Shown here piece after piece: positions 8,795-49,853 of a stretch of 64,000 nucleotides of DNA. Each line of letters opens with the position of its first letter. Position 1 is the stretch's first letter. Below the pieces are notes generated by a model. It did no database searches, was not told where the DNA came from, and saw only the letters and a list, made by a program, of their open reading frames with translations. Both the position numbers and the translations under genes were made by a program. Source of the stretch: Antedon mediterranea (lineage: Eukaryota; Animalia; Echinodermata); contig NC_092680.1 in assembly GCF_964355755.1 (NCBI RefSeq), forward strand, positions 15,757,045 through 15,821,044, read 5' to 3'.

Positions 8795-8800
8795 AATGTA

Positions 8801-11800
8801 ATGGATGAAATCAACGACATAGTAATCAAGAATGCATGCCTTGCCAAAACGAAAGGTTTACTTCTTCATAAATTTTCTGAAGCACTCAAAACCATCACCA
8901 TACCCCCTCAGCCATCTGAAAACACTAGTAACAATACATGTACCTCCAGAAACAGTAACTACCACCTTAAACTATTGGTGTTATCAAGCTTGGATATGCT
9001 AGCAAGTAGAGGTGGATGCAACTCAGCAGAGTCTATCTTGAGAAATCTCATTCAGGAACAAAAGCTTATTGAAATTTTGGTAGGTTTTAAATTAAGATAT
9101 ATTGCCCCCCTGAAATTGTTGTTGAATAATGCTAGACCAGGATGAAGTTAAGATGGGTGACATCCGGCTTTTTACATTTCTGTGACAAGCTATCCTTTGT
9201 GACCAATTTTCACCTACAGTACTTGTCAGTCATTCGATTCTGTTTCGAGCTGTCGCGTGTTTACATCAATCACATGACCAAAATAATGTTACGGCTTTCT
9301 TACTTTAGTAAAACATAAAGAAATGATAAGCCTGAAAATAATTAACTATAATTGCAATGTATATTACCTATACTAGCAGCGGTTTTTTGTCCACTCCAAT
9401 AGCCCGGATGTACACAATGATTATGGTACAAAAATGCTATCATTTCCGAGCCAGATTACACCAATCTTAATTTCCTGATCTATGCCATTTTAATGTCATT
9501 TAGTATAACTTTAACCAAAAACATACATCTTTAAAACTAATTCTTCAAACAAGTAAAGTAGATTAAATTAAGATTTAGAGTATCAAGGGTATGTCAGGTA
9601 GACAATCAACTTTGTATAAAAAATGTTAACAGTATACTGTTTCATTTATGTTGTCATTATCTTTAGTATTTTCATAATACAATGCTCATGATTGGTTGTC
9701 ATCATTATCAATCATGATAATACTATTTTCATTTTTATTATTATAAATATTATTATTATTATATTATTGTTTTCCATTTTAATTCTTTCAGATCAATTGC
9801 CTTAGTGACAATGATGCATTTGTGGCATATAGTGCATGTAAAGCAACAGCTACTCTTCTTTGTTCTCTGAAATCTCTGGTAATTATTTTATTTTTGGTAC
9901 ATATTTTAATGAAAAATTAATCTCTAATCTACTGCCAGGGTTGTGTAACTCATGACTTATTCAACTCCACTTTATAATAAGTGTGATAGATTATAAAATA
10001 GTTTATCCATCTTCAAATTGTTTAATTGTATTTTTTTTGTAGGATTTCTATAAGCTTGCTGATTCACTGATAACCAATTCATTCAACAAGTATAAGTCAA
10101 TTGAGATGTATGAATCATGTAAAGGTGAAATGCAAAAAAAGACTGTCTATCCCTGGGAAGTTGTGACCACTGTACTCAACAGAATCGGCACACAAGAAAA
10201 CAAGGCTAAGTCATGTTGCATGAATGATGGTTATCAGCCTGGTCCTGAAAATGGTCTAATAATATTTGCTTATATTTTGTCTTAAATTTAATGTGAAAAC
10301 ATTCTCAAAATGTTTACAGAATTACAGCAATATAAAATAAATTCATCTGGTTCCGAATATAACTGGAAAATTATTAGTTTTATACCAATTGTGTATGTAT
10401 TTTTTGGTTCAACATAAAATTAATAATTTTTCAGTTAAGAATTAGAGCACGTTCATTATCACCATTAGATAAGGCTATTCCCAATTGTCACACATGAAGC
10501 GTAATTGACATCGAGTTCGAACAATACCATGAAAGCCCCAGTGGTCTAATGGTTAGGACATCTGCATATCAAGCAGGCGGTCCGAGTTCGAGTCTCGGTT
10601 GGGGCGACTTTTTCTCATTCTCACAGATTTCCTCATCTTTATCGTTTCAAATTAATTAATTAAATTTCAGTATATCACCGGGCGGTTTAGAATTAATGTT
10701 CTTTGCCTATTGTGTTTATATATATAAAAGTATCTCTTCGGAGATCCCGTCTCGTGAATAAAAATACTGAAAGATGAGGGCGTATCAATTTGATCTCTGT
10801 TGCGCGTGCGTACAACTGAGGACTACTGCTGTTCCGCCGTACCACGCCGAGAATGTTACAGAGTCGTTATCCAATCGAGTTCGAACAATACCATGAAAGC
10901 CCCAGTGGTCTAATGGTTAGGACATCTGCATATCAAGCAGGCGGTCCGAGTTCGAGTCTCGGTTGGGGCGACTTTTTCTCATTCTCACAGATTTCCTCAT
11001 CTTTATCGTTTCAAATTAATTAATTAAATTTCAGTATATCACCGGGCGGTTTGGAATTAATGTTCTTTGCCTATTGTGTTTATATATATATATATACTTA
11101 CTTTTGAACCATAATAGTATTACAACATTTATGTTATTGTTTTAGGTTTTATAACTTATTGCTGTAAGACGGTGCTTGAATTACTTAACAATCCAGAAGA
11201 ATATAACACCATATGTTACATGATAGAGGATAGTAGCAAACAAGAGGATGAGAATGAGAACTGCTTAATGTCTATACTGTTACTTATTGAAGCGAGTCTT
11301 AAATACGCAATCAAGAATCTGACTGAAGATGTAGTATCCATCCTGAAAAGTTGTGAAAGCTTCTTTGCGTGTATCGCAGATAGTCTCAACAGATGTATCA
11401 ATCCACTTGTCTATAAGAAAATACTGGACATGCTAAATGTCTACCTTTTCAACATGAATGAAAATGAGAAACTCAAATGCACAGTTATATTATCAACCAA
11501 ACTGCTGTCTATGACCAAGGGTGACCTGTTTGAAAATGCTCCATACAAAAATGTATACATGGCGTTTGGTGGATCTGTTTTTAGTGATTATTCAAATCTT
11601 GGAGATGAACATCAAAAAGGAGATATGGAAATGTTGAGGAAGCTGTCTGTGCTGGTTGTTAAAAACTGTGAGGTGATAAACATGACATCTTCACTTACAA
11701 ACTTACATTCTGATGTAACTAAAAGTTTTAACAAACTTTCACGTTATGTAAATTCAAAATTAGGTTTCAAATCAAACACCATTTGTGATTGGCTATTCCA

Positions 11801-12998
11801 CCTGTATGCTGATAATGATGCTAGTCTTATTTGTATAATGTTCTTGCTGTTAAGAATACATAATCAGAGTTTATCAACTGACATTAAATCAGATCCACAT
11901 GAAGTGTTTCAAAGATTCCTAAAGACAGTTGCTTATGATCATAGCGTTTTGCTGGATCTGTTGATTTCAGATGAAACTGAATTTTTAGCTTATTTTGTGC
12001 AATATTTGCATACAGTTGTTTCCAGTTGGTCGGCTTTTAAGGAACTTCATTCAAATTTAGATTTACCAAGCACAGATAATGAAGTATATAAAACAAAACC
12101 AGAAGATATACCTAGTGTAAGTAAAGGAACAGTAATGAATAACTCATGGCAAAGAGAAGAGAATGAACCAACAGGAATTATAATTAAACCAGAAAAAAAT
12201 CAAAATATTGATAAAGATTTAGAATGTTTAAACAAAGAACATGAAACACTTGATTCCACACCATATAACATTGATGGTTTGATAAAAGAAAGTCAGAACG
12301 AATTTGAAGATGGAACAAAGCATTCTAAAATAGAGGCTTTGAAAAGAGATCATGATGATAATAATGTCATGAATGAATTAGGTGAAATGGATAAAAAAGC
12401 TAGATATTCAGTGAACTATGAAGGTAGTGGCTTGCCAATTGGTGATGCTACTACAGTTTCTTCTAAAGTACATTGTAGTGACAGTAAGCCTTCAAACCAG
12501 TGTACTGGTGACCTGGAGTTTGTAAACCAGTGTACTGGTGACATTGGGCCTGTAAACCGGTGTACTGGTGACATTGGGCCTGTAAACCAGTGTACTGGTG
12601 ACAGTGAGACTGTAAACCAGTTTACTGGTGACAGTGAGACTGCAAACCAGTGTACTGGTGACAGCAAGACTGCAAACCAGTGTACTGGTGACCTGGAATC
12701 TGGAAACCAGTGTACTGGTGACATTTTAATGAGTACTCCTCTGGTTCTTACCTCTAGCAATGATAATATAGATATCACCACAAAAGTTGACGTCATCGGC
12801 TTAAATGATAGCTCTGATAATGATAGCTTTGATAATGATTCAGACGATGATGATTCCTCATTAGATAAAACAATGACCACTTTGATAAGGTTAAGACTGT
12901 CGATTGAGAGAATGGTCAATCGGAGGTTATTTCCTTTTCATGTGAACTCACTACTGAAATTATTAGAGAATGTCGAAGGATTGTATGAAAATCAGTAA
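8801..12998 (+). CDS. LINS1: Protein Lines homolog (Lines_N and Lines_C regions), ~809 aa
   Basis: Phase-consistent exons 8801-9079, 9792-9878, 10043-10253, 11146-12998. Lines-like motifs: LRKLSVLVVK, WLFHLYADND, DPHEVFQRFLKTVAYDHSVLLDLLISDETEFLAYFVQYL, and C-terminal LIRLRLSIERMVNRRLFPFHVNSLLKLLE. Confidence 0.9.
10535..10606 (+). tRNA. tRNA-like gene, anticodon ATC (Asp-reading), copy 1; possibly repeat-borne or pseudo
   Basis: 72-nt cloverleaf: acceptor GCCCCAG/TTGGGGC, D stem GTCT/GGAC, anticodon stem TCTGC/GCAGG with loop ATATCAA, T stem CCGAG/CTCGG with loop TTCGAGT, discriminator G, followed by TTTTT. Confidence 0.65.
10899..10970 (+). tRNA. tRNA-like gene, anticodon ATC, copy 2 (identical)
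   Basis: Identical 72-nt cloverleaf 364 bp downstream of copy 1, also followed by a T-run. Confidence 0.65.
12464..12724 (+). repeat. Coding 30-bp minisatellite (NQCTGDxxxx x8) in LINS1
   Basis: aaaccagtgtactggtgac core every 30 bp from 12494 to 12704, plus a degenerate unit at ~12464. Confidence 0.95.
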
Positions 12999-13256
12999 TT
13001 TAATTATTTCTATCAACAGTTTAGAAGAAAAAATCAGAATTAAGTGAAAAAAATAATGATGGAATAGTATATAGTAGAGGGATTTTTTTTCATAAAATGG
13101 CCTAATTTCGACCTTTTTATTTTTCTGGTTACTAAATAGAATAATTGACATGCGTAGAACACATAATTTAACTCTGTGCATGTTAATTATGATATAGTAA
13201 AGCAGTTATGTAAAAAAATAAAATGGTTGAAAATGTTAACCCTTTTATTGGTCTGG

Positions 13257-13480
13257 TCTGCAAACCAGTGTACTGGTGACCTGGAGTCGGAAAACCATTG
13301 TACTGGTGACATTGAGTTTTTAAACCAGTTTACTGGTGACCTGGAGTCTGCAAACCAGTGTACTAGTGACATTGAGTGTGTAAACCAGTGTACTGGTGAC
13401 TTGGAGTCTGTAAACCAGTGTACTGGTGACTTGGAGTCTGTAAACCAGTTTACTGGTGACTGGAGTCTGTAGAACAGTGT
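13257..13480 (+). repeat. Second array of the same 30-bp minisatellite, 3' of the LINS1 stop
   Basis: Seven units at 13262-13442 plus a degenerate eighth. Confidence 0.95.
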
Positions 13481-13809
13481 ATTGTATCAATGGTTAAGAA
13501 TAAAAAATCAGGATCGGATAAAAAAATAATGATGGTATGGTTTGTCCATTAATAGTTTCTTTTAAATAAAATAAAGTCTTTGGTACAGTACAAATTTTTG
13601 TAATAAATGAAAAAAATGTGTACAATAGTGTTTTATTAACAAATTTGCATAACTTTATGCACAAAAAAATTACATTTACATTATATAAAACAATTTAATA
13701 GAGCTTGCCAATTAATGAATGTCGTAAGACTGTACTCCATCAGTAGGATATGCCTATAAAAAAACTGAGGAAGAATATGAGCAGTAAATACTGTACTTAT
13801 CAGCAGAAT

Positions 13810-24271: not shown

Positions 24272-24513
24272 ATCTATATAAAAACTGTTTTGACCTTTCT
24301 TAACGAAAATCTTGTCTGGGATATTTCAGAAAAAAAAAGCAGCAGCGTAAACAATACGAAAACAAAAACGCCACCTAACGGTTGGAGAGTTGTTTTTTTG
24401 GTAAAAAATAGATGGCGCTGTTTTATTTTTAAGTTATTAGAGTGTTGTACAGTACTGCAATTACAAATCAACATGAAAGAGTGAATTTTGATTAATAATT
24501 TTGAATTCTCTAA

Positions 24514-27500
24514 TTAGTTATCCGCTTGGTATACCAAGCGGATAACTCCTTGTTATTGTATGAGATCAACAGTTTTTTTCTGTATTATTAGTTATCCGCT
24601 TGGTATACCAAGCGGATAACTCCTTGTTATTGTATGAGATCAACATTTTTTTTCTGTATTATTAGTTATCCGCTTGGTATACCAAGCGGATAACTCCTTG
24701 TTATTGTATGAGATCAACATTTTTTTTCTGTATTATTAGTTATCCGCTTAGTAGCGGATAACTCCTTGTAATCGTCCTGTTTCATCATCTTTTTTTTTTT
24801 TTTTTTCTGTATTATTAGTTATCCGCTTAGTAGCGGATAACTCCTTGTAACTGTATGAAATCATCTTTTTCTGTATTATTAGTTATCCGCTTAGTAGCGG
24901 ATAACTCCTTGTAATCGTCCTGTTTCATCATATTTTTTTTTTTTTTTTTTTTCTGTATTATACTTCTTTCCTTCTGTCATTTTTGTGCGTCGCGTTTCTC
25001 TGAAACGTGTAAACAGAACAAATCGTAACTTTGTCAACATATCGACATTTACGTGAACTTGTGCACCTCCTATTTTTGAATGACGTCAGAGTTGCGCAAC
25101 GTGACTTACGCGCGATTTTATGAATTTCAATGATTGATCATAGACTAAAAACCAAACATAACTTTGTTTTGACACTTTGTGAAAATTTAAGTTACATCAA
25201 GCGCAAACTTTCTATGGATTAAAAATAGCATCTTTCACAAAAAGTTACGCGCGCACGCGCGTTTAAAATTTTAGAGTGCGAAAAATCAACTTCTAATCAA
25301 CTTTCTATGCGTTTCATGTCATTTTGAGCATGTCAAAAATTCCCACGCGCGCGAAACTTTTTACGCACGCGGTGCACACGTAGCGTTAAAAACATATTTT
25401 TTTCGCGTGATTTATGTTTTTTCAGCCTTTTATAGTAATGTTACCAACTTTTAAACAATTTCGACTTAAAATTACGTCATACGAGCACGTCGAATTAAAT
25501 AATTTGCACGCGTTTCTGGTGAAAAAGTTCAAAAATTCGTCAAAATTATGCCTATTTTTAAACAGTCATAGATTCTAAACTACATGGAGAACTTTTTTTT
25601 AATTACATATTCTGGAAGTTGATGAGTTGTAGATATCGAATCATGCATTAATATGGCTAACCGGACATTGTAACGTCATCGTATGGCCACGCAAATATAA
25701 AATATAGGATTTTTGTCTCTTTCGTCATAGTTCATCACATTTAATAGAGCGCATCTCCACTTATTCGTTGTCCATTTTCACCCCGATTTTAATATATTCT
25801 AGGTCAATCAACTATCTTTTGCATGAATTAAAAATTTTTTAATTTTTTCAACGTCATCATGCCTAAAAATTTAAATTACGTTGGTCATTAATTTCATCTT
25901 TACAGTAAATTTTAATCTGTTATAGCTCGTAAGAATAAAATGTGATAATCACGATTAAAACGTTTTCAGGAAGCTATTGTATTGTAGATACAAAATCATG
26001 TGAAAATTGCTCCAATCGAATGTTGTGACGTCATCATATGGCCAGTTAAATACAAAAAGTCGTATTTTCATCTTTTGCGTTATATTTCATTACATTTAAA
26101 AGAGCGCGCATCAATATTTCACGTATTCAAATTTCTTCTACACGTTAATATGTTGTTGCTGAGATAATTTCATTCTGAAATTTCTACTTTTGCATTTCAT
26201 TTTGAAACCGTCAAGATGTTCAAAATTACAATAAAATACGGGTCCCGTAATTTCACCTATTTTACACTGTTTGTGATATGTATACAGATTGTACTGTGTA
26301 TACTATGTATATGACACAAAATAACAGAATTCAGAAATAACAACATATCATATTCTTCAGTTCAGGTCATAATGCCTTAATATTTTTCTGTGTGCAATAT
26401 TCTAACGTATGACGTGCACATGGCGTTTGTCGAGCGGATAACTAACTCGTCATAGTGACGAGTTTCATGTCTAGTTCTTTCTTTCTGTCAATTTTGTGTC
26501 TTGCGTATCTCAAAAACTTGTAAACAAAACATTTTATAACTTTGTCAACATGTGGGCATTCACGTGAAATTGTGCACCTCCTATTGTGAATGACGTCAGA
26601 ATTGCGCAACGTGATTTACGCGCATTTTAACGAATTTCGCGTATTTAACATAGATCGAAAACCATATAGCAATTTAAATTGCAACTTAACAAAAGTTTAA
26701 TTTATATCTCGCACTAACTGACTGTGGAAAAAAAATGGCATGTTTCACACGAAGTTACGCGCGCACGGGCGTTTAAAATTTCAAAATGCGAAAAATCAAT
26801 TTCTAATAAACTTTCTACGCGTTTCATGTCATTTTGAGCAAGTCAAAAAATCCCATGCGCGCGCATATTTTTACTCGCACGGTGCGCACGTAGCGTTGAA
26901 AATAAATTTTTTTCGCGTGATTCATGTTTTTCCAGCCTTTTCTAGTAATTTTACCAACTTTTGAACAATTTTGACCTAAAATTACGTCATACGGGCACAT
27001 CCAATTGGATAATTTACGTGCGTTTTTGATGAAAAAGTTCAAAAATTTGTCAAAATTATGCCTTTTTTTAAACATTCATAGATTCTAAACTACGAGGTGA
27101 ACCTTTTTTTAAATTATATATTCTGGAAGTTGATGAGTTGTAGATATGGAATCATGCATTAATATGGCTAATCGGACATTATAAGGTCATCGTATGGCCA
27201 CGCGAATATAAAATATAGGATTTTTATATCTTTCGTCATAGCGCATCACATTTAATAGAGCGCATCTCCACTTATCCGTTTTTTATTTTCACCCCGATTT
27301 TGATATTGTCTAGGTGAACGAACTATCTTTCGCATGAGTTAAAAATATTTTAATTTTTATGACGTCATCATGTCGAAAATTGTAAATAACGTGGGTGACT
27401 TATTTTCATCTTTACAGTAAATTTCAATCTGTTATAGCTCATCAGAATAAAAAGTGATAATCATGATTAAAACGTTTTCTGGAAGCTAAGGGATTGTAGA

Positions 27501-30500
27501 TACGAATTCATGTAAACATTTTGCCAATGGGATGTTGTGACGTCATCATATGGCCAGTTGAATAAAAAAAGGCGTATTTTCATATTTTGCGTAATATTTC
27601 ATCACATTTAAAAGGGCGCGCATCTATATTTTACGTATTCAAATTTCTTCTACTCGCTAATATGTTGTTGCTGAGATAATATCCTTCCGAAATTGTTATT
27701 TTAGTGTTTCATTTTGATACCGTCGCCATGTTAAAAAATGGAATAAATGGCGGGTCCCGTAATTTCACCTATTCTACACTGTATGTAATATGTATACAGA
27801 TTATACTGTTTATACTGTACTAAATGACACAAAATTGATAGAATTCAGCACTAACAACATATTATATTCTTCAGATCAGGTCATAATGCCATAATCTTTT
27901 TCTGTGTGCAAAATTCTAACGCATGACGTGCACGTGGCGTTTGTCGTGCGGATAACTAACTCGTCAAAGTGACGAGTTTCATGTCTAGTACTTCTTTCCT
28001 TCTGTCATTTTTGTGCGTCGCGTTTCTCTAAAACGTGTAAACAGAACATATCGTAACTTTGTCAACATATCGACATTTACGTGAACTTGTGCACCTCCTA
28101 TTTTTGAATGACGTCAGAGTTGCGCAACGTGACTTACGCGCGATTTTATGAATTTCAATGATTGATCATAGACTAAAAACGAAACATAATTTTGTTTTGA
28201 CACTTTGTGAAAATTTAAGTCACATCAAGCGCAAACTTCCTATGGATTAAAAATAGCATGTTTCACAAAAAGTTACGCGCGCACGCGCGTTTAAAATTTC
28301 AGAGTGCGAAAAATCAACTTCTAATCAACTTTCTATGCGTTTCATGTCATTTTGAGCATGTCAAAAATTCCCACGCGCGCGAAACTTTTTACGCACGCGG
28401 TGCACACTTAGAGTTAAAAACATATTTTTTTCGCGTGATTCATGTTTTTTCAGCCTTTTATAGTAATGTTACCAACCTTTAAACAATTTCGACTTAAAAT
28501 TACGTCATACGAGCACGTCGAATTAAATAATTTGCACGCGTTTCTGGTGAAAAAGTTCAAAAATTCGTCAAAATTATGCCTATTTTTAAACAGTCATAGA
28601 TTCTAAACTACATGGAGAACTTTTTTTTAATTACATATTCTGGAAGTTGATGAGTTGTAGATATCGAATCATGCATTAATATGGCTAACCGGACATTGTG
28701 ACGTCATCGTATGGCCACGCGAATATAAAATATAGGATTTTTGTCTCTTTCGTCATAGCTCATCACATTTAATAGAGCGCATCTCCACTTATTCGTAGTC
28801 GATTTTCACCCCGATTTTAATATATTCTAGGTCAATCAACTATCTTTTGCATGAATTAAACATTTTTTAATTTTTTTATCGTCATCATGCCTAAAAATTT
28901 AAATTACGTTGGTCATTAATTTCATCTTTACAGTAAATTTTAATCTGTTATAGCTCGTAAGAATAAAATGTGATAATCAGGATTAAAACGTTTTCAGGAA
29001 GCTATTGTATTGTAGATACAAAATCATGTGAAAATTGTGCCAATCGAATGTTGTGACGTCATCATATGGCCAGTTAAATACAAAAAGTCGTATTTTCATC
29101 TTTTGCGTTATATTTCATTACATTTAAAAGAGCGCGCATCAATATTTCACGTTTTCAAATTTCTTCTACACGTTAATATGTTGTTGCTGAGATAATTTCA
29201 TTCTGAAATTTCTACTTTTGCATTTCATTTTGAAACCGTCAAGATGTTAAAAATTACAATAAAATACGGGTCCCGTAATTTCACCTATTTTACACTGTTT
29301 GTGATATGTATACAGATTGTACTGTGTATACTATATGACACAAAATAACAGAATTCAGAAATAACAACATATCATATTCTTCAGTTCAGGTCATAATGCC
29401 TTAATATTTTTCTGTGTGCAATATTCTAACGTATGACGTGCACGTGGCGTTTGTCGAGCGGATAACTAACTCGTCAAAGTGACGAGTTTCATGTCTAGTT
29501 CTTCTTTCCATCCTTCTTTTTTGTGGATCGCGTTTCTCTAAAATGTGTAAACATAACATTTCATAACTTTGACAACATATGGGCATTTACGTGAAGTTGT
29601 GCACCTCCTATTTTTGAATGACGTCATAGTTGCGCAACGTGACTTACGCGCAATTTTATGAATTTCAATGATTGATCATAGATTAAAAACCAAAAGTCAT
29701 TTAGTATTGACACTTTGACAAAATTTAAGTCATATCAGGGGCAAACTTTCTACGGATTAGAAATGGCATGTTTCACAAGAAGTTACGCACGCACGCGCAT
29801 TTAAAATTTCAAAATGCGCAAAATTAATTTCTAATCAACTTTTTATGCGTTTCTTGTCATTTTGAGCATGTCAAAAATTCCCACGGGCGCGCAATTTTTT
29901 ACGCACGCGGTGCGCACGTAGCGTTAAAAACATTTTTTTTTTCTTGAATTATATTTTTCAAGTCTTTCCTAGTAATTTTGAAAACAATTTAGACCTTTTC
30001 CAATTTAAATAACGCCACACGAACACGTTGAATTAAACATTTCATGCGCGTTTTTTATGAAAAAGCTTAAAAAATCGTCAAAATTTTGTCTTTTTTTAAA
30101 CAGTCATAGTTTCTAAAGTAAACCGTGAACCGTTTATTTTTATTACAAAATCTAGAAGTTGATGAGTTGTAGATATCGGATCATGCATCGATAAGGCTAA
30201 AAAAACATTGTGACGTCATCGTATGGCCACACGAATGTAAAATATAGGATTTTTGTCTCTTTCGTTATTGCTCATCACATTCAATGGAGCGCATCACGCT
30301 TATCTGTTTTCCTTTTTCTCCTACATTTATTTATACATTGTGTAGGTCAATCAACTTTCTTTAGCATGAGATAAAAATATTTTAATTTTTATGACGTCAT
30401 CATGCCTAAAAATTTTAATTACGTGGGTCATTAATTTCATCTTTACAGTAAATTTTATTCTGTAATAGCTCGTAAGAATAAAATGTGATAATCACGATTA

Positions 30501-33500
30501 AAACGTTTTCTGGAAGCAATTGGATTGTAGATACGAATTCATGTAAACATTTTGCCAATCGGATGTTGTGACGTCATCATATGGCCAGTTGAATAAAAAA
30601 AGTTGTATTTTTATATTTTGCGTAATAGTTCATCACATTTAAAAGGGTGCGCATCTATATTTTACGTATTCAAATTTCTTCTACACGTTAATATGTTGTT
30701 CCTAAGATAATTTCCTTCTGAAATTGCTATCTAAGTGTTTCATTTTGATACCGTCGCCATGTTAAAAATTGGAATAAATGGCGGGTCCCGTAATTTCACC
30801 TATTCTACACTGTATGTAATATGTATACAGATTATACTGTTTGCATGTATATACTATATGACACAAAATTGACAGAATTCAGCACTAACAGCATATCATA
30901 TTCTTCAGTTCTTGTCATAATGCCATAATCTTTATCTGTGTGCAATATTCCAACGTATGACGTGCACGTGGCGTTTGTCGTGGTGCGGATAACTAACTCG
31001 TCAAAGTGACGAGTTTCATGTCTAGTTAGTTATCCGCTTAGTAGCGGATAACTGCTTGTAATCGTCCTGTTACTTTTTTTTTTTTTTTTCTTATTTCTTT
31101 CTCCCTCATTTTTGTGTCTCGCGTATCTCAAAAACTTGTAAACATAACATTTCATTACTTTGTCAACATATGGGCATTTACGTGAAGTTGTGCACCTCCT
31201 ATTTTTTAATGACGTCAGAGTTGCGGAACGTGACTTACGTGCGATTTTATGATTTTTTATGATTGATCATAGACTAAAAACCAAGCATAAATTTGTTTTG
31301 ACACTTTGTGAAAATTTAAGTCATATCAAGGGAAAACTTTTTGTGGATTAAAAATGGCATGTTTTACAAGACGTTACGCGCGCACGCGCATTTCTCCTCT
31401 ATTTTTGTGTCTCGCGTATCTAAAAAACGTGTAAACATAACATTTCATAACTTTGTCAACATATGGGCATTCACGTGAAGTTGTGCACCTCCTATTGTGA
31501 ATGACGTCAGAAATGCGCAACGTGACTTACGCACAATTTTATGAATTTCGCGTATTTAACATAGATTTAAAACCATAGAACAATTTAAATTGAAACTTAG
31601 CAAAAGTTTAATTTATATCATGCGCTAACTTTCTGTGGATAAACAATTGCGTGTTGTACACAAAGTTACGCGCGCACGCTAATTTAAAATTCAAAATGCA
31701 AAAAATCAATTTCTAATCAACTTTCTACGTGTTTCATGTCATTTTAAGCATGTAAAAAATTCCCACGCGCGCGCTTTTTTTTACGCGCGCGGTGCGAACG
31801 TAGCGTTGAAAACCATTTTTCTCTCGTGATTTATGTTTTCAAGCCTTTTATAGTAATTTTACCAACTTTGAAACAATTTCGACTTCAAATTACGTCATAC
31901 GGGCACGTCGAATTGGATAATTTATGTGCGTTTTTTAGGAAAAAGTTCAAACATTTGTCAAAATTATACCTTTTTTTAAACAATCATAGATTCTAAACTA
32001 CGAGGTGAACTTTGTTTAAATTACATATCCAGGAAGATGATAAGTTGTAGATAAGGAATCATGCATTGATATGGCAAACCGGACATTGTGACGTCATCGT
32101 ATGGCCACGCGAATATAAAATATAGGATTTTTGTATCTTTCGTCATAGCGCATCTCATTTAATAGAGCGCCTCTCCACTTATCCGTATTCCATTTTAACC
32201 CAGATTTTGAAATTTTCTAGGTCAATCAACTATCTTACGTAAGAGTAAACATTTTTTTATTTTTATGACGTCATAATGTCTAAAAATATAAATAACGTGG
32301 GTCACTTATATTTATCTTTACAGTAAATTTTAATCTGTTATAGCTCATCAGAATAAAATGTGATAATCACGATTAAAACGTTTTCTGGAAGCTATTGGAT
32401 TGTAGATACGAATTCATGTAAACATTTTGCCAATCGGATGTTGGGACGTCATCATATGGCCAGTTGAATAAAAAAAGACGTATTTTCATATTTTGCGTAA
32501 TAGTTCATCACATTTAAAAGGGTGCGCATCTATATTTTACGTATTCAAATTTCTTCTACACGTTAATATGTTGTTCCTGAGATAATTTCCTTCTGAAATT
32601 GCTATCTAAGTGTTTCATTTTGATACCGTCGCCATGTTAAAAATTGGAATAAATGGCGGGTCCCGTAATTTCACCTATTCTACACTGTATGTAATATGTA
32701 TACAGATTATACTGTTTGCATGTATATACTATATGACACAAAATTGACAGAATTCAGCACTAACAGCATATCATATTCTTCAGTTCAGGTCATAATGCCT
32801 TAATATTTTTCTGTGTGCAATATTCTAACGTATGACGTGCGCGTGGCGTTTGTCGAGCGGATAACTAACTCGTCAAAGTGACGAGTTTCATGTCTAGTTC
32901 TTCTTTCCATCCTTCCTTTTTGTGGATCGCGTTTCTCTAAAATGTGTAAACATAACATTTCATAACTTTGACAACATATGGGCATTTACGTGAAGTTGTG
33001 CACCTCCTATTTTTGAATGACGTCATAGTTGCGCAACGTGACTTACGCGCAATTTTATGAATTTCAATGATTGATCATAGATTAAAAACCAAAAGTCATT
33101 TAGTATTGACACTTTGACAAAATTTAAGTCATATCAGGGGCAAACTTTCTACGGATTAAAAATGGCATGTTTCACAAGAAGTTACGCGCGCACGCGCATT
33201 TAAAATTTTAAAATGCGCAAAATTAATTTCTAATCAACTTTTTATGCGTTTCTTGTCATTTTGAGCATGTCAAAAATTCCCACGGGCGCGCAATTTTTTA
33301 CGCACGCGGTGCGCACGTAGCGTTAAAAACATATTTTTTTCTCTTGAATTATATTTTTCAAGCCTTTCCTAGTAATTTTGAAAACAATTTAGACCTTTTC
33401 CAATTTAAATAACGCCATACGAACACGTTGAATTAAACATTTCATGCGCGTTTTTTATGAAAAAGCTTAAAAAATTGTCAAAATATTGTCTTTTTTTAAA

Positions 33501-36500
33501 CAGTCATAGTTTCTAAAGTAAACCGTGAACCGTTTATTTTTATTACAAAATCTAGAAGTTGATGAGTTTTAGATATCGGATCATGCATCGATAAGGCAAA
33601 AAAAACATTGTGACGTCATCGTATGGCCACACGAATGTAAAATATAGGATTTTTGTCTCTTTCGTTATTGCACATCACATTCAATGGAGCGCATCACGCT
33701 TATCTGTATTCCTTTTTCTCCTACATTTATATATTGTGTAGGTCAATCAACTTTCTTTAGCATGAGATAAAAATATTTTAATTTTTATGACGTCATCATG
33801 CCTAAAAATTTTAATTACGTGGGTCATTAATTTCATCTTTACAGTAAATTTTATTCTGTAATAGCTCGTAAGAATAAAATGTGATAATCACGATTAAAAC
33901 GTTTTCTGGAAGCTATTGGATTGTAGATACGAATTCATGTAAACATTTTGCCAATCGGATGTTGTGACGTCATCATATGGCCAGTTGAATAAAAAAAGTT
34001 GTATTTTCATATTTTGCGTAATAGTTCATCACATTTAAAAGGGTGCGCATCTATATTTTACGTATTCAAATTTCTTCTACACGTTAATATATTATTCCTA
34101 AGATAATTTCCTTCTGAAATTGCTATCTAAGTGTTTCATTTTGATACCGTCGCCATGTTAAAAATTGGAATAAATGGCGGGTCCCGTAATTTCACCTATT
34201 CTACACTGTATGTAATATGTATACAGATTATACTGTTTGCATGTATATACTATATGACACAAAATTGACAGAATTCAGCACTAACAGCATATCATATTCT
34301 TCAGTTCTTGTCATAATGCCATAATCTTTATCTTTGTGCAATATTCCAACGTATGACGTGCACGTGGCGTTTGTCGTGGTGCGGATAACTAACTCGTCAA
34401 AGTGACGAGTTTCATGTCTAGTTAGTTATCCGCTTAGTAGCGGATAACTGCTTGTAATCGTCCTGTTACTTTTTTTTTTTTTTTTTCTTATTTCTTTCTC
34501 CCTCATTTTTGTGTCTCGCGTATCTCAAAAACTTGTAAACATAACATTTCATTACTTTGTCAACATATGGGCATTTACGTGAAGTTGTGCACCTCCTATT
34601 TTTGAATGACGTCAGAGTTGCGCAACGTGACTTACGTGCGATTTTATGATTTTTTATGATTGATCATAGACTAAAAACCAAGCATAAATTTGTTTTGACA
34701 CTTTGTGAAAATTTAAGTCATATCAAGGGAAAACTTTTTGTGGATTAAAAATGCCATGTTTTACAAGACGTTACGCGCGCACGCGCATTTCTCTTCTATT
34801 TTTGTGTCTCGCGTATCTAAAAAACGTGTAAACATAACATTTTATAACTTTGTCAACATATTGGCATTCACGTGAAGTTGTGCACCTCCTATTGTGAATA
34901 ACGTCAGAAATGCGCAACGTGACTTACGCACAATTTTATGAATTTCGCGTATTTAACATAGATTTAAAACCATATAACAATTTAAATTGAAACTTAGCAA
35001 AAGTTTAATTTATATCATGCGCTAACTTTCTGTGGATAAAAAATTGCGTGTTTTACACAAAGTTACGCGCGCACGCTAATTTAAAATTCAAAATGCGAAA
35101 AATCAATTTCTAATCAACTTTCTACGTGTTTCATGTCATTTTAAGCATGTAAAAAATTCCCACACGCGCGCTTTTTTTTACGCGAGCGGTGCGAACGTAG
35201 CGTTGAAAACCATTTTTCTCTCGTGATTTATGTTTTCAAGCCTTTTATAGTAATTTTTCCAACTTTGAAACAATTTCGACTTCAAATTACGTCATACGGG
35301 CACGTCGAATTGGATAATTTATGTGCGTTTTTGAGGAAAAAGTTCAAACATTTGTCAAAATTATACCTTTTTTTAAACAATCATAGATTCTAAACTACGA
35401 GGTGAACTTTGTTTAAATTACATATCCAGGAAGATGATAAGTTGTAGATAAGGAATCATGCATTGATATGGCAAACCGGACATTGTGACGTCATCGTATG
35501 GCCACGCGAATATAAAATATAAGATTATTGTATCTTTCGTCATAGCGCATCTCATTTAATAGAGCGCCTCTCCACTTATCCGTATTCCATTTTAACCCAA
35601 ATTTTGAAATTTTCTAGGTCAATCAACTATCTTACGCAAGAGTAAACATTTTTTTATTTTTATGACGTCATAATGTCTAAAAATATAAATAACGTGGGTC
35701 ACTTATATTTATCTTTACAGTAAATTTTAATCTGTTATAGCTCATCAGAATAAAATGTGATAATCACGATTAAAACGTTTTCTGGAAGCTATTGGATTGT
35801 AGATACGAATTCATGTAAACATTTTGCCAATCGGATGTTGGGACGTCATCATATGGCCAGTTGAATAAAAAAAGACGTATTTTCATATTTTGCGTAATAG
35901 TTCATCACATTAAAAAGGGTGCGCATCTATATTTTACGTATTCAAATTTCTTCTACACGTTAATATGTTGTTCCTGAGATAATTTCCTTCAGAAATTGCT
36001 ATCTAAGTGTTTCATTTTGATACCGGCGCCATGTTAAAAATTGGAATAATTGGCGGATCCCGTAATTTCACCTATTCTACACTGTATGTAATATGTATAC
36101 AGAAATACTGTTTGCATGTATATACTATATGACACAAAATTGACAGAATTCAGCACTAACAGCATATCATATTCTTCAATTCAGGTCATAATGCCTTAAT
36201 ATTTTTCTGTGTGCAATATTCTAACGTATGACGTGCGCGTGGCGTTTGTCGAGCGGATAACTAACTCGTCAAAGTGACGAGTTTCATGTCTAGTTCTTCT
36301 TTCCATCCTTCCTTTTTGTGGATCGCGTTTCTCTAAAATGTGTAAACATAACATTTCATAACTTTGACAACATATGGGTATTTACGTGAAGTTGTGCACC
36401 TCCTATTTTTGAATGACGTCATAGTTGCGCAACGTAACTTACGCGCAATTTTATGAATTTCAATGATTGATCATAGATTAAAAACTAAAAGTCATTTAGT

Positions 36501-37815
36501 ATTGACACTTTGACAAAATTTAAGTCATATCAGGGGCAAACTTTCTACGGATTAAAAATGGCATGTTTCACAAGAAGTTACGCGCGCACGCGCATTTAAA
36601 ATTTCAAAATGCGCAAAATTAATTTCTAATCAACTTTTTATGCGTTTCTTGTCATTTTGAGCATGTCAAAAATTCCCACGGGCGCGCAATTTTTTACGCA
36701 CGCGGTGCGCACGTAGCGTTAAAAACATATTTTTTTCCCTTGAATCATATTTTTCAAGCCTTTCCTAGTAATTTTGAAAACAATTTAGACCTTTTCCAAT
36801 TTAAATAACGCCATACGAACACGTTGAATTAAACATTTCATGCGCGTTTTTTATGAAAAAGCTTAAAAAATCGTCAAAATTATGTCTTTTTTTAAACAGT
36901 CATAGTTTCTAAAGTAAACCGTGAACCGTTTATTTTTATTACAAAATCTAGAAGTTGATGAGTTGTAGATATCGGATCATGCATCGATAAGGCTAAAAAA
37001 ACATTGTGACGTCATCGTATGGCCACACGAATGTAAAATATAGGATTTTTGTCTCTTTCGTTATTGCTCATCACATTCAATGGAGCGCATCACGCTTATC
37101 TGTATTCCTTTTTCTCCTACATTTATATATTGTGTAGGTCAATCAACTTTCTTTAGCATGAGATAAAAATATTTTAATTTTTATGACGTCATCATGCCAA
37201 AAAATTTTAATTACGTGGGTCATTAATTTCATCTTTACAGTAAATTTTAATCTGTAATAGCTCGTAAGAATAAAATGTGATAATCACGATTAAAACGTTT
37301 TATGGAAGCTATTGGATTGTAGATACGAATTCATGTAAACATTTTGCCAATCGGATGTTGTGACGTCATCATATGGCCAGTTGAATAAAAAAAGTCGTAT
37401 TTTCATATTTTGCGTAATAGTTCATCACATTTAAAAGGGTGCGCATCTATATTTTACGTATTCAAATTTCTTCTACACGTTAATATGTTGTTCCTGAGAT
37501 AATTTCCTTCTGAAATTGCTATCTAAGTGTTTCATTTTGATACCGTCGCCATGTTAAAAATTGGAATAAATGGCGGGTCCCGTAATTTCACCTATTCTAC
37601 ACTGCATGTAATATGTATACAGATTATACTGTTTGCATGTATACTATATGACACAAAATTGACAGAATTCAGCACTAACAGCATATCATATTCTTCAGTT
37701 CTTGTCATAATGCCATAATCTTTACCTGTGTGCAATATTCCAACGTAAGACGTGCACGTGGCGTTTGTCGTGGTGCGGATAACTAACTCGTCAAAGTGAC
37801 GAGTTTCATGTCTAG
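24514..37815 (+). mobile_element. Nested array of eight non-autonomous Helitron/Helentron-like elements
   Basis: 5' heads TTAGTTATCCGCT..AGCGGATAACT start at 24514, 24588, 24662, 24736, 24815, 24879, 31026, 34422. 3' ends GCGGATAACTA-ACTCGTCAaagTGACGAGT-ttcatgtCTAG end at 26474, 27988, 29498, 31025, 32897, 34421, 36293, 37815. Bodies are ~1.5 kb, with no TSD and no long ORF. Confidence 0.85.
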
Positions 37816-38256
37816 TTAATTTTAACATTTCTCTCGTTCCATTTTACAATACTTTTAGTATTTACAAATTTTGTAGTGATTTTATTTATTTTTTCATATG
37901 GGAATAAGGGTATAATTAATTTGTAACTAATTAAAATCACAGAATTGACAATAATGATTGTAGTACTTTATGTGTTATTTAGGTGAATCTTATTTACAAT
38001 TATTATAATAGAAAGTAATTCAATGTAGGAAAGTTAAAAGATTTCATTAACTATATTAAAATCAAAAGCCCGAAAGGGAAATAAATAAATTAAAAACAAA
38101 GTTTACAATATACATCAAATTATCCTTTATTATTGCACAACTGTAAAATTCATAAAACAAACATATTAAATAATGTATCCTTATCGTAAAAATTAATATT
38201 GAAATGATTATAATTAGTCCATTGTAAATATAATTCAGCAATTGTATTGATCTGTC

Positions 38257-39589
38257 CAGGGGCGCAGCCAGTGGGGGGGTCACGGGGGTCCTGACCCCCC
38301 CTTTTTTTTAGAAAAAATAAATAAAAACATGAGACAACAATACAGATCAAATCATCCTGGAGATACTGTGGAAGATTACTACCGAGCAGTATTACCAAAT
38401 CAACTTCTTGATCCATTTACAAACCGAGTTAAAAACCCGTTTTTCTGCCGATAACAGGCCATGCTTTAAAATATTTGGCGTAGCACCCGAGTCTATCGTG
38501 AAGTGTAATGTTGAAGAAGTCTTCAAGGAACTTGAATTTGGTACGATGATCTGCCAAGACACGAACATCTTCATTCCGAGCTTCAGTGATGGAAGCGACT
38601 GTGTAAAATTAGCGGATCCAGATGTGTTCCCGAATGTGCGTGCACTTCTTCTAATCGCGTAGGCCTATGCCCGTAACGTCTGCTGAAGCTGAGCGGAGTT
38701 TTTCGACGTTGTGGAGAACGAAAACCTGTTTGCGAAATCACATGTCTTATGAGCAGCTTTCGGGACTGTGCCTCATGAACATACACTTTAACATGAACAT
38801 TAATACAGAGAATGTCATTCGCGAATTCTGTCTCCAAGCCAAGAAGAATGTTCCAAACTTATGTGTTTAAAGATGCATCACGCGATGTCTAGAGCGCCGT
38901 TATAGTAACTAACGTAAAATGTATGATAATAATTTAGAAGTTAGTTATTACAATTATGTATAAGCTATCACCTACTGTATACTATACATTCGAACAAAAT
39001 AGGTATAATTTTTAACAAAATATTGTACGTACTGGGTATGATAAGCGTCTCACATACACACGGAGCCAAGATAGCTTCTTGGACTTGCACAGTGTATGAA
39101 CTCTAAACTTACGGTTCTCATTTAATAATATCACTCCATGCTATCATTCTAATTTCTTTTTTCAAACTTTTGTAACTCTACGTTCATTTCATGCAACTTT
39201 TTTATTGGTGAAAAGGGAGGAATTCAAATAATTCCTCCTCTGAGTTTACAGCCTCTCTACACAAATCAACAAACAAGCAAGAAAAAAAGTGTTTGTCTGT
39301 GGCAGCCTGGAATATAAAAATGTTCTGTAATGAAAATGAGAGTTGTTTTTTGTTTTCTTTGTTTCAGTTTATTAGTGTTAACATTGTCATATTTGTGTGT
39401 GCGTAAACCGATTCAAATGATCTAGATTGCGCTAGACCGCCAAAGCTTCCAGGGGGCTTCGCCCCCTGGACCCCGACCGGGGGCCCTTGGCGGCCCCCTG
39501 GCCCCCAGCCCATGGTTGCTCGCTTCGCTCGCAAAATACTCACATATTTGGTTGACCCCCCCTTTAATTCTTTGTTGGCTGCGCCCCTG
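38257..39589 (+). mobile_element. Internally deleted hAT-superfamily DNA transposon, 14-bp TIRs, 5-bp TSD
   Basis: TIR CAGGGGCGCAGCCA / TGGCTGCGCCCCTG, flanked by CTGTC on both sides. Confidence 0.9.
38357..38870 (+). pseudogene. hAT transposase C-terminal remnant (dimerisation domain), frameshifted
   Basis: EDYYR...HLQTELKTRFS...FPNVRALLLIA* then PVTSAEAERSFSTL..KTCLRNHMSYEQLSGLCLMNIH, the typical hATC motif. Confidence 0.85.
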
Positions 39590-40719: not shown

Positions 40720-42850
40720 AGAGGTTGGCTTTAGGTACACATGCTCCACCTGTGCTTAAACTACTTTTGGATATCTATTATGCTAGTGGTAGGCCTATCA
40801 ATTTGCTAGGAATGATGGTAGTGTATGTTATTACTGTCAGTGTTGTTCTCATCTTGTTCTATGGCTTGACATTTTGCAACTGCAGTGGCTAGGACATCTT
40901 GCACAAATGTATCTGCACGCTGTTTTAGTTGCGCATCCTCATTGTTGGTGCTCTTGGCTGCAAGTTGCGATGTCTGGTAGGTGGACGTATCTGGTTTTAA
41001 TGTCAATCGCAGATCTTTTGCGATTGTTAGTTGTAATGAGTCATTCAGGCCAGGAGCGAGTGAGTTGCCTGTGATAACAGTTTTTTAAATTAATCTTTAA
41101 TTCTACAGAGGTTGGCTTTAGGTAAACATGCTCCACCTTTAAGTGCTTAAACTACTTTTGGATATCTATTATGCTAGTGGTAGGGTAGGCCTATCAATTG
41201 GCTTAGGAATGATGGTAGTGTATGTTCTTACGTCAGTGTTGTTCTCATCTTGCTCTATGGCTTGACATTTTGCAACTGCAGTTGCTAGGACACCTTGAAT
41301 GATGGTAGCTGCACGCTGTTTTAGTTGCACATCCTCATCATTGGTGCTCTTGGCTGCAAGTTGCGATGTCTGGTAGGTGAACGTATCTGGTTTTATGTCG
41401 ATCGCAGATGTTTTGCGCTTGTTAGTATAGTTGTAATGAGTCATTCATGCCAGGAGTGAGTGAGTTGCCTGTGATAAAAGTTTTTCAAATTAAGCTTGAA
41501 TTCTACAGTAATAATATTCCAACAGCACAGCATTATATACTAACACATCTGTGGTGTTCTAAAGAAAATAGTAAATGATAGGCTATTATGCAAGGCTGGC
41601 CTACCTGCAGCGGGTGAAGATAATGATTAATTATTTGAACCTCCATCTATTGGTCTATAGGATTCATCTTCTTCATCTCCTGTTGCTGCTGCTACTACAG
41701 GGGCCGGGGGTCCTGCTGGTGGGACTGCTACAACTAAAACAAAAGATACTACTATTAAACAATGCAGGGCCGTAGTTCTTCATGAGGAAGAAGAGGCGCT
41801 CGCCTCATCTCTGACAATTTCACAACCCAATTTCTTACTGTCAGTGTTGTTCTCATCTTGCTCTATGGCTTGACATTTTGCAACTGCAGTTGGTAGGACA
41901 CCTTGAATGATGGTAGCTGCACGCTGTTTAGTTGCGCATCCTCATTGTTGGTGCTCTTTGGCTGCAAGTTGCGATGTCTGGTACTGTAGGTGGATGTATC
42001 TGGTTTTAATGTCAATCGCAGATGTTTTGCGATTGTTAGTTGTAATGAGTCATTCAGGCCAGCAGGAGTGAGTGAGTTGCCTGTGGTAAAATTTTTAAAA
42101 ATTAATCCTTAATTCTACAGAGGTTGGCTTTAGGTAAACATTCTCCACCTTTGAGTGCTTAAAGTACTTTTGGATGTCTATTATGCTAGTGGTAGGCCTA
42201 TGAATTGGCTTAGGATAAGTAAGTAATATTTATTGCTTTCCAAATACAGTACAAATATATAAAACAGTATAATGTAAATGAAATAAAAAGAGAAACATTA
42301 AATATAAAAATACAAGACTAGACAAGAAAATAAGCATGGAAAGCAGGGGATGGCCCTTTAAGCCCAGAGGCTTGTTTCCAAAGGGGTCCCCAGCCTCCTA
42401 GCCTCTAGTGTAGTAGTAGGCCTAGCTAGACTAGGCCTATAGCTTATCTAGTCTAGCCTAGTAGTAATAGTAGGTCTACTAGGCCTAGCTAGGCTAGTAC
42501 CACGTCCACAGCCAGACCGGCGTACCGGATGATGGTAGTGTATGTTCTTACTGTCAGTGTTGTTCTCATCTTGCTCTATGGCTTAACATTTTGCAACTGC
42601 AGTTGATAAGACGTCCTTGAACGAAGGTAGCTGCACGCTGTTTTAGTTGCGAATCCTCATCATGGGGGCTCTTGACTGCAAGTTGCGATGTCTGGCAGGT
42701 GGACGTTTTTCAAATTAAACTTTAATTCTACAGTAATAATATTCCAACAGCATAGCATATACTAAATGCTACTATTAAATAATGTAGGGCCGTAGTTAGC
42801 ATGAGAAAGAAGAGGCGCTCGCCTGATCATCTCTGAAAACTTCACAACCC
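40720..42850. repeat. Four dispersed-tandem copies of a ~230-400 bp exon+intron segment
   Basis: Copies near 40835-41068, 41232-41468, 41839-42080 and 42552-42706 with shared flanks. 42397-42530 also duplicates ~43198-43343. Confidence 0.85.
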
Positions 42851-42899
42851 ACCCCACTCGTCATATTTATATAATATAATTAAAGCATTGCCTTGTTTT

Positions 42900-43310
42900 T
42901 AACCTCTCACTCAACTAGGCTAGCAAGGGCCCAGCCTAATAATACTAGCCAGGCCTCCTAGAGTTAGGCCTAGGCTAGGCTCTGGGAGGGCTAGGCCTAG
43001 CCCTAGCTTAATTAGGCCTAGCTAGGCTAGTATTACTATAATATGGTCGCGCGCCTCACTCACTAGTAGGAGGCCTCGCTAGTAATACTATTTAATACAA
43101 ATATTAATAATAGCCTAGCCTAGGCTAGTAGGCCCTAGTAACACAGGCTAGCCTACCTAACTAGGCCTACCTAGTAGCTAGTCAGCCTAGCTAGAGGCTC
43201 CTAGCCTCTAGTGTAGTAGTAGGCCTAGCTAGACTAGGCCTATAGCTTATCTAGTCTAGCCTAGTAGTAATAGTAGGTCTACTAGGCCTAGCTAGGCTAG
43301 GCTAGTACCA
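42900..43310. repeat. CTAG/AGGCCT-rich low-complexity tract
   Basis: Dense ctag, taggccta and gctagc words. Confidence 0.8.
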
Positions 43311-45647: not shown

Positions 45648-46044
45648 TTAAGGGGTTTTTTTCAGTTAGTACACCCTGCAGTTTAGAACACGTGATTTTA
45701 TTTCCGTACATAAATGGGGACCCCTCACAAAATAAACATGAATATTCATTAATGATATCCATAAGGTGTACGTGTAACGCAAGAATTGAACTACAATTCG
45801 CTAATGCAAATACTTTCCGTTGAGCCGTCTAATGGATTAAATTAGAAAGTCCAAACTTATGTACGAAAACAAAAATCGTTGCTAGCACAGTACCAATACC
45901 ACCCATTGCCCACATTTATTTCTGTTAATTAAAAGCTTTACAAGTTGCTCTAATCACCAAACTGTCTGCTCTGTCAATAAAAGTAATAATGCATGTAGTC
46001 ATTTTACATTAAACCATTTCCTTAACAGAAAACGAGTTTAGTAA

Positions 46045-46543
46045 TAGAGAGGTTTCGCAATCTTACGAATACGATAACGAAAACGTCATGCACACGTATT
46101 TGTTAAACCACGTAAGCAATAAAAAAATCTGTTTCGCACGGCAACGAAATATTGAGGCGCGTCCAAAATATGACTGTGGTAAATTTGAGCGAAGCGCAGG
46201 TACGTGTTGCTTGGTGCTTGGCTGCCTAGGCCTAGCGTAACATCAAAGCGAGTGAGGACTTTAAAAACTGCTATTTATCAAAATTGACCTGGCATTTTAG
46301 TAAATTACTTTAGTAAATTACTTTCAATAAATCTAAAATTATATTATAATTATGAATCATTCCAGATTCAAATGCAAAATAGATCAAAAACTATACTCGT
46401 TTTGTAGTTATGAATATGACTGGTGATATTCGTCAACACGAATACGCTTTACGAATATGAAAAGGGGATCAGCTCAAAAGTTTCACAAATGTATGACGTA
46501 TCCGTTTTCGTTATCGTATTCGTAAGGTTGCGAAACCTCCCTA
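46045..46543. mobile_element. MITE with ~40-bp TIRs and TAA TSD (PIF/Harbinger-like)
   Basis: taa|tagagaggtttcgcaatcttacgaatacgataacgaaaacg ... cgttttcgttatcgtattcgtaaggttgcgaaacctcccta|taa. Confidence 0.85.
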
Positions 46544-46859
46544 TAATCATGGCAGTTTCACTATTCTTTCTTTACATGTATTTATGACTGGTCAGAATGA
46601 TACAGCAGAATCCTACATTTATTTCTTGCTATGTAGTCGAAATTACACCAATAAAAACAAAGAGACAACACAACTCACTGGATAGCCTTTTTTTATTTTC
46701 CGTTTTACATATTATTTCACATTTGGGCACACCTAGAGAGTAACTGCATAACTCTGTGGTTGGTACAAAAACACTTGCGCTTTATGATCTTCAGTATATA
46801 CTTGATGTTTGTTAACCACCGATTGTGCCAGGGCCCTGTTTCTCTGCAGTAAACCTAGC

Positions 46860-49853
<2,994 letters not shown>

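Follow-up and report, generated by a model that had tools for sequence, protein, structure and literature searches.

A 13.3-kb block in the genome of the echinoderm Antedon mediterranea looks like eight copies of one rolling-circle transposon family inserted into one another at a single internal site. The DNA analysed (the window) is a stretch of 64,000 nucleotides from NCBI RefSeq assembly GCF_964355755.1, contig NC_092680.1, positions 15,757,045 to 15,821,044 of the forward strand, and the block occupies positions 24514-37815 of it. At a probability of roughly 75%, we read the block as eight protein-less copies of a Helitron2-type (HLE2) element, nested by repeated self-insertion and likely helped by the copying of units that were already nested. 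The self-insertion reading draws on the bracket order of the element ends, the uniform lengths of the rebuilt elements, the mirror order of their parts, one split and one intact copy of the same type, ends of the kind known from the non-autonomous HINE elements, an empty allele, and nested junctions in read contigs.

Each interrupted copy consists of a short 5' head and a long body that closes with a tail. Heads and tails were located by script on the whole block, and all 16 coordinates agree with a sequence-only reading of the same DNA, which had counted exactly eight of each (Table 1). Written as brackets they give (((((())))())()), a nesting of six levels that involves four non-autonomous subfamilies, A, B, C and D; script search found no further family copies in the window outside the block. 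Read from left to right, the heads run C,C,C,A,B,A and the bodies A,B,A,C,C,C, an exact reversal that only one of the 60 possible orders achieves, and like heads pair with like bodies at each level, as that reading had claimed. Excision from the inside out, the check it had proposed, restores an element at every step: six of 1578-1601 bp (C at 1596, 1598 and 1601 bp, the outer A at 1589 bp, B at 1578 bp and the intact A at 1596 bp) and two D copies of 1872 bp each. The pairing also agrees at a finer level, given that the outermost C head, with its G at 24572, is odd and its bracket partner is an odd C body as well. The two other C bodies share four derived sites relative to that of E1, and no other pairing has a clean shared derived site (33 variable sites examined, eight with mixed outgroup states).

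The description of the block as a nested stack of eight needs one amendment. The nesting of rolling-circle elements is real, but the D copies, each of which sits between an inner tail and a C body, are siblings rather than layers: E3 and D1 lie side by side inside E2, and E2 and D2 inside E1. Nor is the perfect order significant in itself. When all sites remain available in simulation, eight elements reach a depth of at least five with p = 0.058. The order therefore gives no support to the idea that unfilled sites are the only targets.

Same-type bodies are 18-27 substitutions apart (1.18-1.79%) with few indels, and different-type bodies differ by 9.2-14.1%. Divergence is 1.44% between D1 and D2 and 1.51% between C1 and C2, and the three C heads are 99-100% identical. 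The D copies are chimeric: about 300 bp of extra body start, 88% similar to A and C, precede a complete B-like body that becomes nearly identical to C in its 3' part; C and D differ by 0.7-1.3% over alignment columns 1051-1350 and by 20-26% in several other 150-column windows.

Table 1 Features of the nested block, in window positions; heads start and tails end at the first and last positions of the respective rows
Feature	Position	Strand	Basis
Whole nested block: outermost E1 (type C) and contents, 13,302 bp; empty allele joins 24513 to 37816	24514..37815	+	presence/absence insertion
Head of E1 (C; G at 24572), partner body 36294-37815	24514..24587	+	bracket parse, divergence, derived sites
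Head of E2 (C), partner body 32898-34421	24588..24661	+	bracket parse
Head of E3 (C), partner body 29499-31025	24662..24735	+	bracket parse
Head of E4 (A), partner body 27989-29498	24736..24814	+	bracket parse
Head of E5 (B), partner body 26475-27988	24815..24878	+	bracket parse
E6, innermost intact element (A, 1596 bp), non-coding	24879..26474	+	bracket parse, frame check
5' subterminal repeat nested in 11-bp-stem hairpin of E6	24879..24906	+	folding
T tract then CTGTATTA^T, unfilled internal target site of E6	24931..24962	+	sequence, junction comparison
3' subterminal repeat, 9-bp stem-loop and terminal CTAG of E6	26434..26474	+	motif search, folding
Body and tail of E5 (B)	26475..27988	+	bracket parse, divergence
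Body and tail of E4 (A), 1.79% from E6 body	27989..29498	+	bracket parse, divergence
Body and tail of E3 (C)	29499..31025	+	bracket parse, divergence
D1, complete 1872-bp element, sibling of E3 inside E2	31026..32897	+	bracket parse
Body and tail of E2 (C)	32898..34421	+	bracket parse, divergence
D2, complete 1872-bp element, sibling of E2 inside E1; 1.44% from D1	34422..36293	+	bracket parse, divergence
Body and tail of E1 (C)	36294..37815	+	bracket parse, divergence, derived sites
Extra body starts in D1, D2	31093-31393, 34490-34790		

Element ends and the internal site

Every head begins with a 12-bp repeat held in a hairpin. A short stretch specific to the type comes next, then the T tract, with 5 to about 20 bases, and CTGTATTA, which the D heads lack. 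All eight tails carry an inverted copy of the repeat, a 9-bp stem-loop and a terminal CTAG. The repeat and its reverse complement are therefore subterminal inverted repeats, present in 8/8 heads and 8/8 tails; in E6 the 3' copy extends from 41 bp to 29 bp before the 3' end, at 26434-26445. On folding, the 5' hairpin has a stem of 11 bp in A and D and of 14 bp in C (z -7.2 to -8.3; none of 200 shuffles as stable), and the first 36 bases of B are identical to A, so the 11-bp stem is common to A, B and D. The 9-bp stem of the 3' end was recovered in both tails folded (z -2.0 and -2.8, 81-nt pieces). The longest stop-free frame in A, B, C and D is 63-83 codons, and no open reading frame of 120 amino acids occurs within the block. 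Tandem arrays in the bodies were not found by TRF, and the central repeats amount to a weak 355-bp period with a motif every 175-204 bp (a decayed period of about 175/355 bp).

The elements start with TTAG or TAG and have subterminal inverted repeats, in place of the 5' TC start of canonical Helitrons (HLE1), with which they have the 3' hairpin and CTAG in common. From the subterminal inverted repeats, the 5' hairpin, the 3' stem-loop before CTAG and the missing reading frame, the family is classified by its ends as a non-autonomous member of the Helentron/Helitron2 type (HINE, HLE2). A HINE/DINE-1 layout that matches these ends is described in PMC4067079 and PMC7492417, and HINE/DINE-1 is placed within HLE2 in PMC11417382 (papers given by PMC number are represented here by the available parts of their text). 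Scans with the head pattern gave no loci in viral contigs or metagenome contigs, and the tail pattern gave none in metagenome contigs. The only match of the prokaryote scan, 32 bp similar to the 5' hairpin at L001:3000-3031 in a contig of a bacterial metagenome-assembled genome, has no body and was rejected as chance.

The target site lies 64-82 bp inside the 5' end, which is also the length of the heads, close to the 65-80 bp of the sequence-only reading. Five insertions sit directly behind the CTGTATTA of a head and two, the D copies, behind a tail. Every body starts at the base where a head stops, and the outer A is split at the exact base where the intact A is continuous, with no target-site duplication. 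That reading had placed the cut at ctgtattA^T; the position stands, but the cut could be A^T or T^T, one base apart, as the terminal T cannot be assigned to either side. Read one base rightward, seven of the eight junctions are T^T and one is T^A. As they stand, 6/8 junctions fit TNAT^T/A, and 8/8 do if each D entered its C before the sibling. The intact A contains 61 motifs of this type on both strands; the chance that five independent insertions fall on the same one is about 7e-8, which makes the case look too strong if some units arrived pre-nested. The junctions are best read as the product of elements inserting repeatedly into copies of their own family at a TTAT^T/A site that lies 64-82 bp from the 5' end, with pre-nested copying as a probable contribution.

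Two candidate reasons for the choice of site can be given. Folding predicts that the DNA following the 5' hairpin, T tract and site included, has no structure, and we give nearly even odds to the view that this strand is exposed when the transposase engages a resident copy. A plain sequence preference for a T tract followed by TTAT^T is possible too, at odds somewhat below even. We lean to strand exposure because the head length matches the 5' duplications of 31, 65, 73 and 85 nt in the Fusarium oxysporum element FoHeli1 (PMC5148889).

An empty allele and nested junctions in read contigs

Six sequencing runs share words with the region (fractions of 0.70-0.85 for X3-X6, 0.07 for X1 and 0.05 for X2), and only X3-X6 were compared. 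These are assembled contigs from one sample of one study, which may or may not be the source of the window assembly; contigs drop rare paths, and their depth is not an exact copy number. The stretches compared were 24662-26900, for which 15 of 43 joints, 24 of 601 loose ends and 32 of 26591 pieces were listed, and 24420-24625, for which 24 of 47 loose ends and 32 of 707 pieces were listed.

In 4/4 runs the left-flank contig (24452-24516) departs from the block, and in X4 its loose letters match the right flank at 37819 with 0/27 mismatches. The left flank thus joins the right flank without duplication, which makes the 13.3-kb block a clean presence/absence insertion. Together with the comparison of the intact and split A, this bears out the earlier claim that no target-site duplication is made. 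Depth of the empty-allele contig (4.8, 163, 13.6 and 8.1) is at most half that of other single-locus contigs, which would fit a heterozygote.

The family is high-copy, with single contigs at depths of 1659 and 2324 and the C hairpin at 1250 in X3. Contigs in which one head runs into another reach a depth of 321.7 in X3 (24560-24601) and 333.3 in X6 (24555-24599), where presumed single-locus contigs have median depths of 11.9 and 26.3, respectively. Relative to eight hand-picked contigs of that kind per run, this is 16-27 times (X3) and 8-13 times (X6) the single-locus depth, for contigs that hold only 12-14 letters of the second head, below the 31-letter bridging rule. Summed depth rises over 24574-24601 in 4/4 runs, and the filled share of C-head depth is at least 18-26%. 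Some head variants not represented in the window likewise continue into another head (loose ends before 24573, 4/4 runs), and one X3 contig has a related head inserted inside the T tract behind 24579, a few bases ahead of the usual site. Behind 26479, at least two X5 contigs show a tail running into a body start that is absent from the window. This body start is that of an abundant, intact C-like variant, which is unbranched from head to body at depths of 829, 1139 and 929 in X3, X5 and X6. Bracket-type junctions hence exist beyond this locus, and the internal site is used elsewhere too. The sample contigs over 24540-24600 also contain further head variants with other hairpin loops.

Routes to the stack

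Several observations weigh against a stack built by fresh insertions alone, or against parts of the self-insertion reading. An outer-to-inner age gradient was sought by private substitutions and not found (innermost A 12, outer A 9, C3 9, C2 6, C1 9, D1 5, D2 15), and the layers are of similar age within noise, at about 0.3-1% per copy. The block therefore records insertion order, as had been claimed, as topology only, and the topology leaves the order of each D and its sibling free. In X3 the G-variant C head is filled in about 78% of its depth (321.7 of 410), which, with the unbranched sister variant, suggests that pre-nested units were copied besides fresh insertions; the outermost element may have carried guests on arrival, as a descendant of a two-headed or composite master. 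High-depth head-head junctions could likewise be copies of one two-headed master or of a head-only array, and are not independent counts of targeting. Repeated insertion into earlier copies, as first proposed, is partly supported, with copying of pre-nested units suggested alongside.

The same side of the balance holds the linkage of heads to bodies in solo copies, which the sequence-only reading had made a test. It is weakly shown for C, where a loose end is 3/30 letters off the C body start and 4/30 off that of A, and the commonest intact C-like head runs into a different body start. The 15 of 43 joints listed include none that links head B to body B, and B-like heads run into longer T tracts. 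At 24483-24503 the empty-allele contig is the only one among the pieces listed, with no filled left junction, and the E6-private bases 25849 and 26221 have no depth in X3-X6; neither absence counts as evidence, since contigs of this kind drop rare paths. This particular stack is seen in the window assembly alone. No autonomous partner (RepHel) was found in the 64-kb window, and the class stays Helentron/Helitron2. The segment pattern of C and D further shows that the subfamilies are mosaics exchanging segments, so that recombination also shapes them.

If copying did most of the work, the site would have taken few insertions over the history of the family and would be no recurring target; most growth of the stack would come from units that were already nested, such as head C + D + body C, through transposition, local duplication or gene conversion. 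We consider this unlikely. It would explain why both outer C elements hold a D at the same place and why D1-D2 and C1-C2 are about equally diverged, and it sits well with the heavily filled G-variant head beside an unbranched abundant sister, with the absence of the whole block from the other allele and with the missing age gradient. Chimeric multi-headed FoHeli copies also transpose as units (PMC5148889). However, four subfamilies that are 9-14% apart need at least four nesting events (A in B, B in A, A in C and D in C) besides C in C. Simple duplication of a C[D] unit is not supported either: it would make C1 and C2 sisters, but the sister of C2 is C3, which lacks a D (four shared derived sites versus no clean one). 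Moving the whole stack would also require read-through of seven intact 3' hairpins, which act as terminators in Helraiser.

Two further explanations are very improbable. The block could be two independent tandem arrays from one ancestral element, slippage having made a 74-bp satellite of heads and rolling-circle over-replication a 1.5-kb array of truncated bodies, as the three nearly identical tandem C heads and the truncated-Helitron arrays of plants (Xiong et al., as summarised in PMC12628747) might suggest. This is nearly refuted by the equal numbers of heads and tails, their one-for-one types and mirror order, by the start of each body at the base where a head stops, and by bodies from four subfamilies where over-replication copies one template. 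Alternatively, dispersed copies could have been wrongly joined during assembly, for which the high copy number of the family and the sole listing of the empty allele among the X3-X6 contigs at this locus can be cited. Yet each of the eight copies is separated from its nearest twin by 18-27 substitutions and few indels, misassembly would not break five elements at one internal base and recreate the mirror order, and the same kinds of junction occur in independent contigs.

Under repeated self-insertion, a rolling-circle transposase (RepHel) from an autonomous partner elsewhere would copy the element from its 5' end to the CTAG past the 3' stem-loop, and the copy would be joined into a T(N)AT^T/A site without duplication. 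Every C, A and B copy carries such a site 64-82 bp from its 5' end, immediately past the T tract that follows the hairpin, and a new copy would split its host there, leaving a short head on one side and a long body on the other, with all insertions in one orientation. The site would persist on the head side, open to re-use, which would account for the D siblings if D entered first. A displaced head would keep its hairpin and start signal, and multi-headed or composite units could be copied to new loci; transposition started from a displaced head would run to the first tail and yield a copy with two heads, as drawn for FoHeli (PMC5148889). Because C, A and B copies would all bring in a site of their own, stacks with more sites would attract more insertions. 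In a model in which 20-30% of insertions go into existing copies, stacks of at least eight arise at 0.13-0.58% of loci.

The Helraiser transposase starts with a nick at the 5' end and peels off a single strand as far as the hairpin before CTAG, which it can bypass, and it forms circles; its copy has been proposed to join a single-stranded target, and no local hopping was seen in 701 events (PMC4778049, PMC5876387). Helraiser is an HLE1 element, and its mechanism would have to carry over to HLE2. More generally, and only tentatively, self-targeting might be inherent to HLE2 chemistry in fungi and animals. An engaged transposase would expose a strand 30-85 nt behind the hairpin, guests would take the heads of their hosts and leave orphan bodies, subfamilies would compete by head theft, multi-headed copies would spread, and stacks would grow by preferential attachment to satellite-sized blocks.

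Neighbouring features, related systems and meaning

A Lines-family gene lies upstream of the block at 8771-12998 (+), with LINES_N (1.8e-26) and LINES_C (3.2e-12) Pfam matches in a 626-aa frame at 11118-12998; Lines is an animal gene. It contains a 30-bp coding minisatellite at about 12400-12780, and a second array of this unit follows the stop at about 13200-13520. Just before the large frame, a 217-bp direct repeat (10510-10726 and 10874-11090, 100% identity, 364 bp apart) is either a recent duplication or an assembly slip. On the other side of the block, a decayed coding-like stretch with stops and frameshifts at about 38300-38830 (+) has what we take to be a likeness to the C-terminal part of a hAT transposase. 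Diverged repeats spaced 400-1000 bp apart at about 40720-43300 are possibly a second, older compound repeat block. Elements resembling miniature inverted-repeat transposable elements occur at 46044-46544 (42-bp inverted ends, 95% complementary) and as an adjoining pair at 48079-48427 and 48773-49093 (terminal inverted repeats of 56-65 bp). An uninterrupted 1002-codon frame at 54950-57958 (-) resembles a receptor gene with a single exon; it encodes immunoglobulin domains, a hydrophobic stretch and a long tail of charged residues. Together with the Lines gene, this frame marks the host as an animal.

The idea of self-insertion is not new. FoHeli1 and FoHeli2 (Helitron2/HLE2) have multiple 5' termini, for which self-insertion near the 5' end was proposed (Chellapan et al. 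2016, PMC5148889), and a FoHeli copy with up to five heads is known (PMC13342296). FoHeli and the present family share HLE2-type ends with hairpins at both ends, short stacked 5' segments in the same range, under 200 bp (31-85 nt versus 64-82 bp), and a TNAT^T/A target, given for FoHeli1/2 as TNAT^A in the text and TNAT^T in a legend (PMC5148889). FoHeli elements are autonomous and have several heads and one tail, their self-insertion is inferred, and one nested copy is reported in the available text. In contrast, every head here keeps its body and tail (8/8), in six levels of four non-autonomous subfamilies, at a constant site, in an animal and with an empty allele. The block is hence a proposed precursor of the FoHeli-type chimera with multiple 5' termini, not the chimera itself.

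With HINE/DINE-1 elements (Thomas et al. 2014, PMC4067079; oyster Cg_HINE, PMC7492417) the family shares a 5' subterminal repeat with a nested inverted repeat and a low-complexity tract behind it, a 3' subterminal repeat with stem-loop, the lack of coding capacity, and a T-rich target without duplication. It differs from those with a central array (Cg_HINE, DINE-TR) in having no young central tandem array, and ordered nesting at the 5' tract is not mentioned in the available text of either paper. Maize Helitrons also insert near or inside one another, and nested intermediates were proposed as the source of multi-terminus copies, but these are canonical HLE1 elements with mostly extra decayed 3' ends, the intermediates are hypothetical, and the available text describes no fixed site (PMC3288121). 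Over-replication arrays and dimers of transposable elements are summarised in a review (PMC12628747), and the available parts of PMC13085455, PMC4683698 and PMC8268682 do not mention ordered nesting. No report of a fully bracketed, multi-level HLE2 stack at one site was found in the literature searched, whose coverage is incomplete and does not show absence from print. The elements and the self-insertion idea are already known; the complete ordered intermediate with an empty allele seems to be new.

Among retroelements, Zepp of Chlorella and DIRS-1 of Dictyostelium are self-targeting and build clusters by inserting into their own earlier copies, with a chemistry unlike that of a rolling-circle DNA element. 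For Helitron-like elements, target choice and the origin of multi-terminus copies have so far been inferred and not shown. The self-insertion model of multiple 5' termini requires a full nested intermediate. The locus described here preserves one, resolved to single bases and accompanied by an empty allele, and it names a 30-base candidate site for RepHel. It also points to a route by which tandem-looking DNA may arise through insertion, not slippage or over-replication, in blocks that repeat annotators would file as two satellites.

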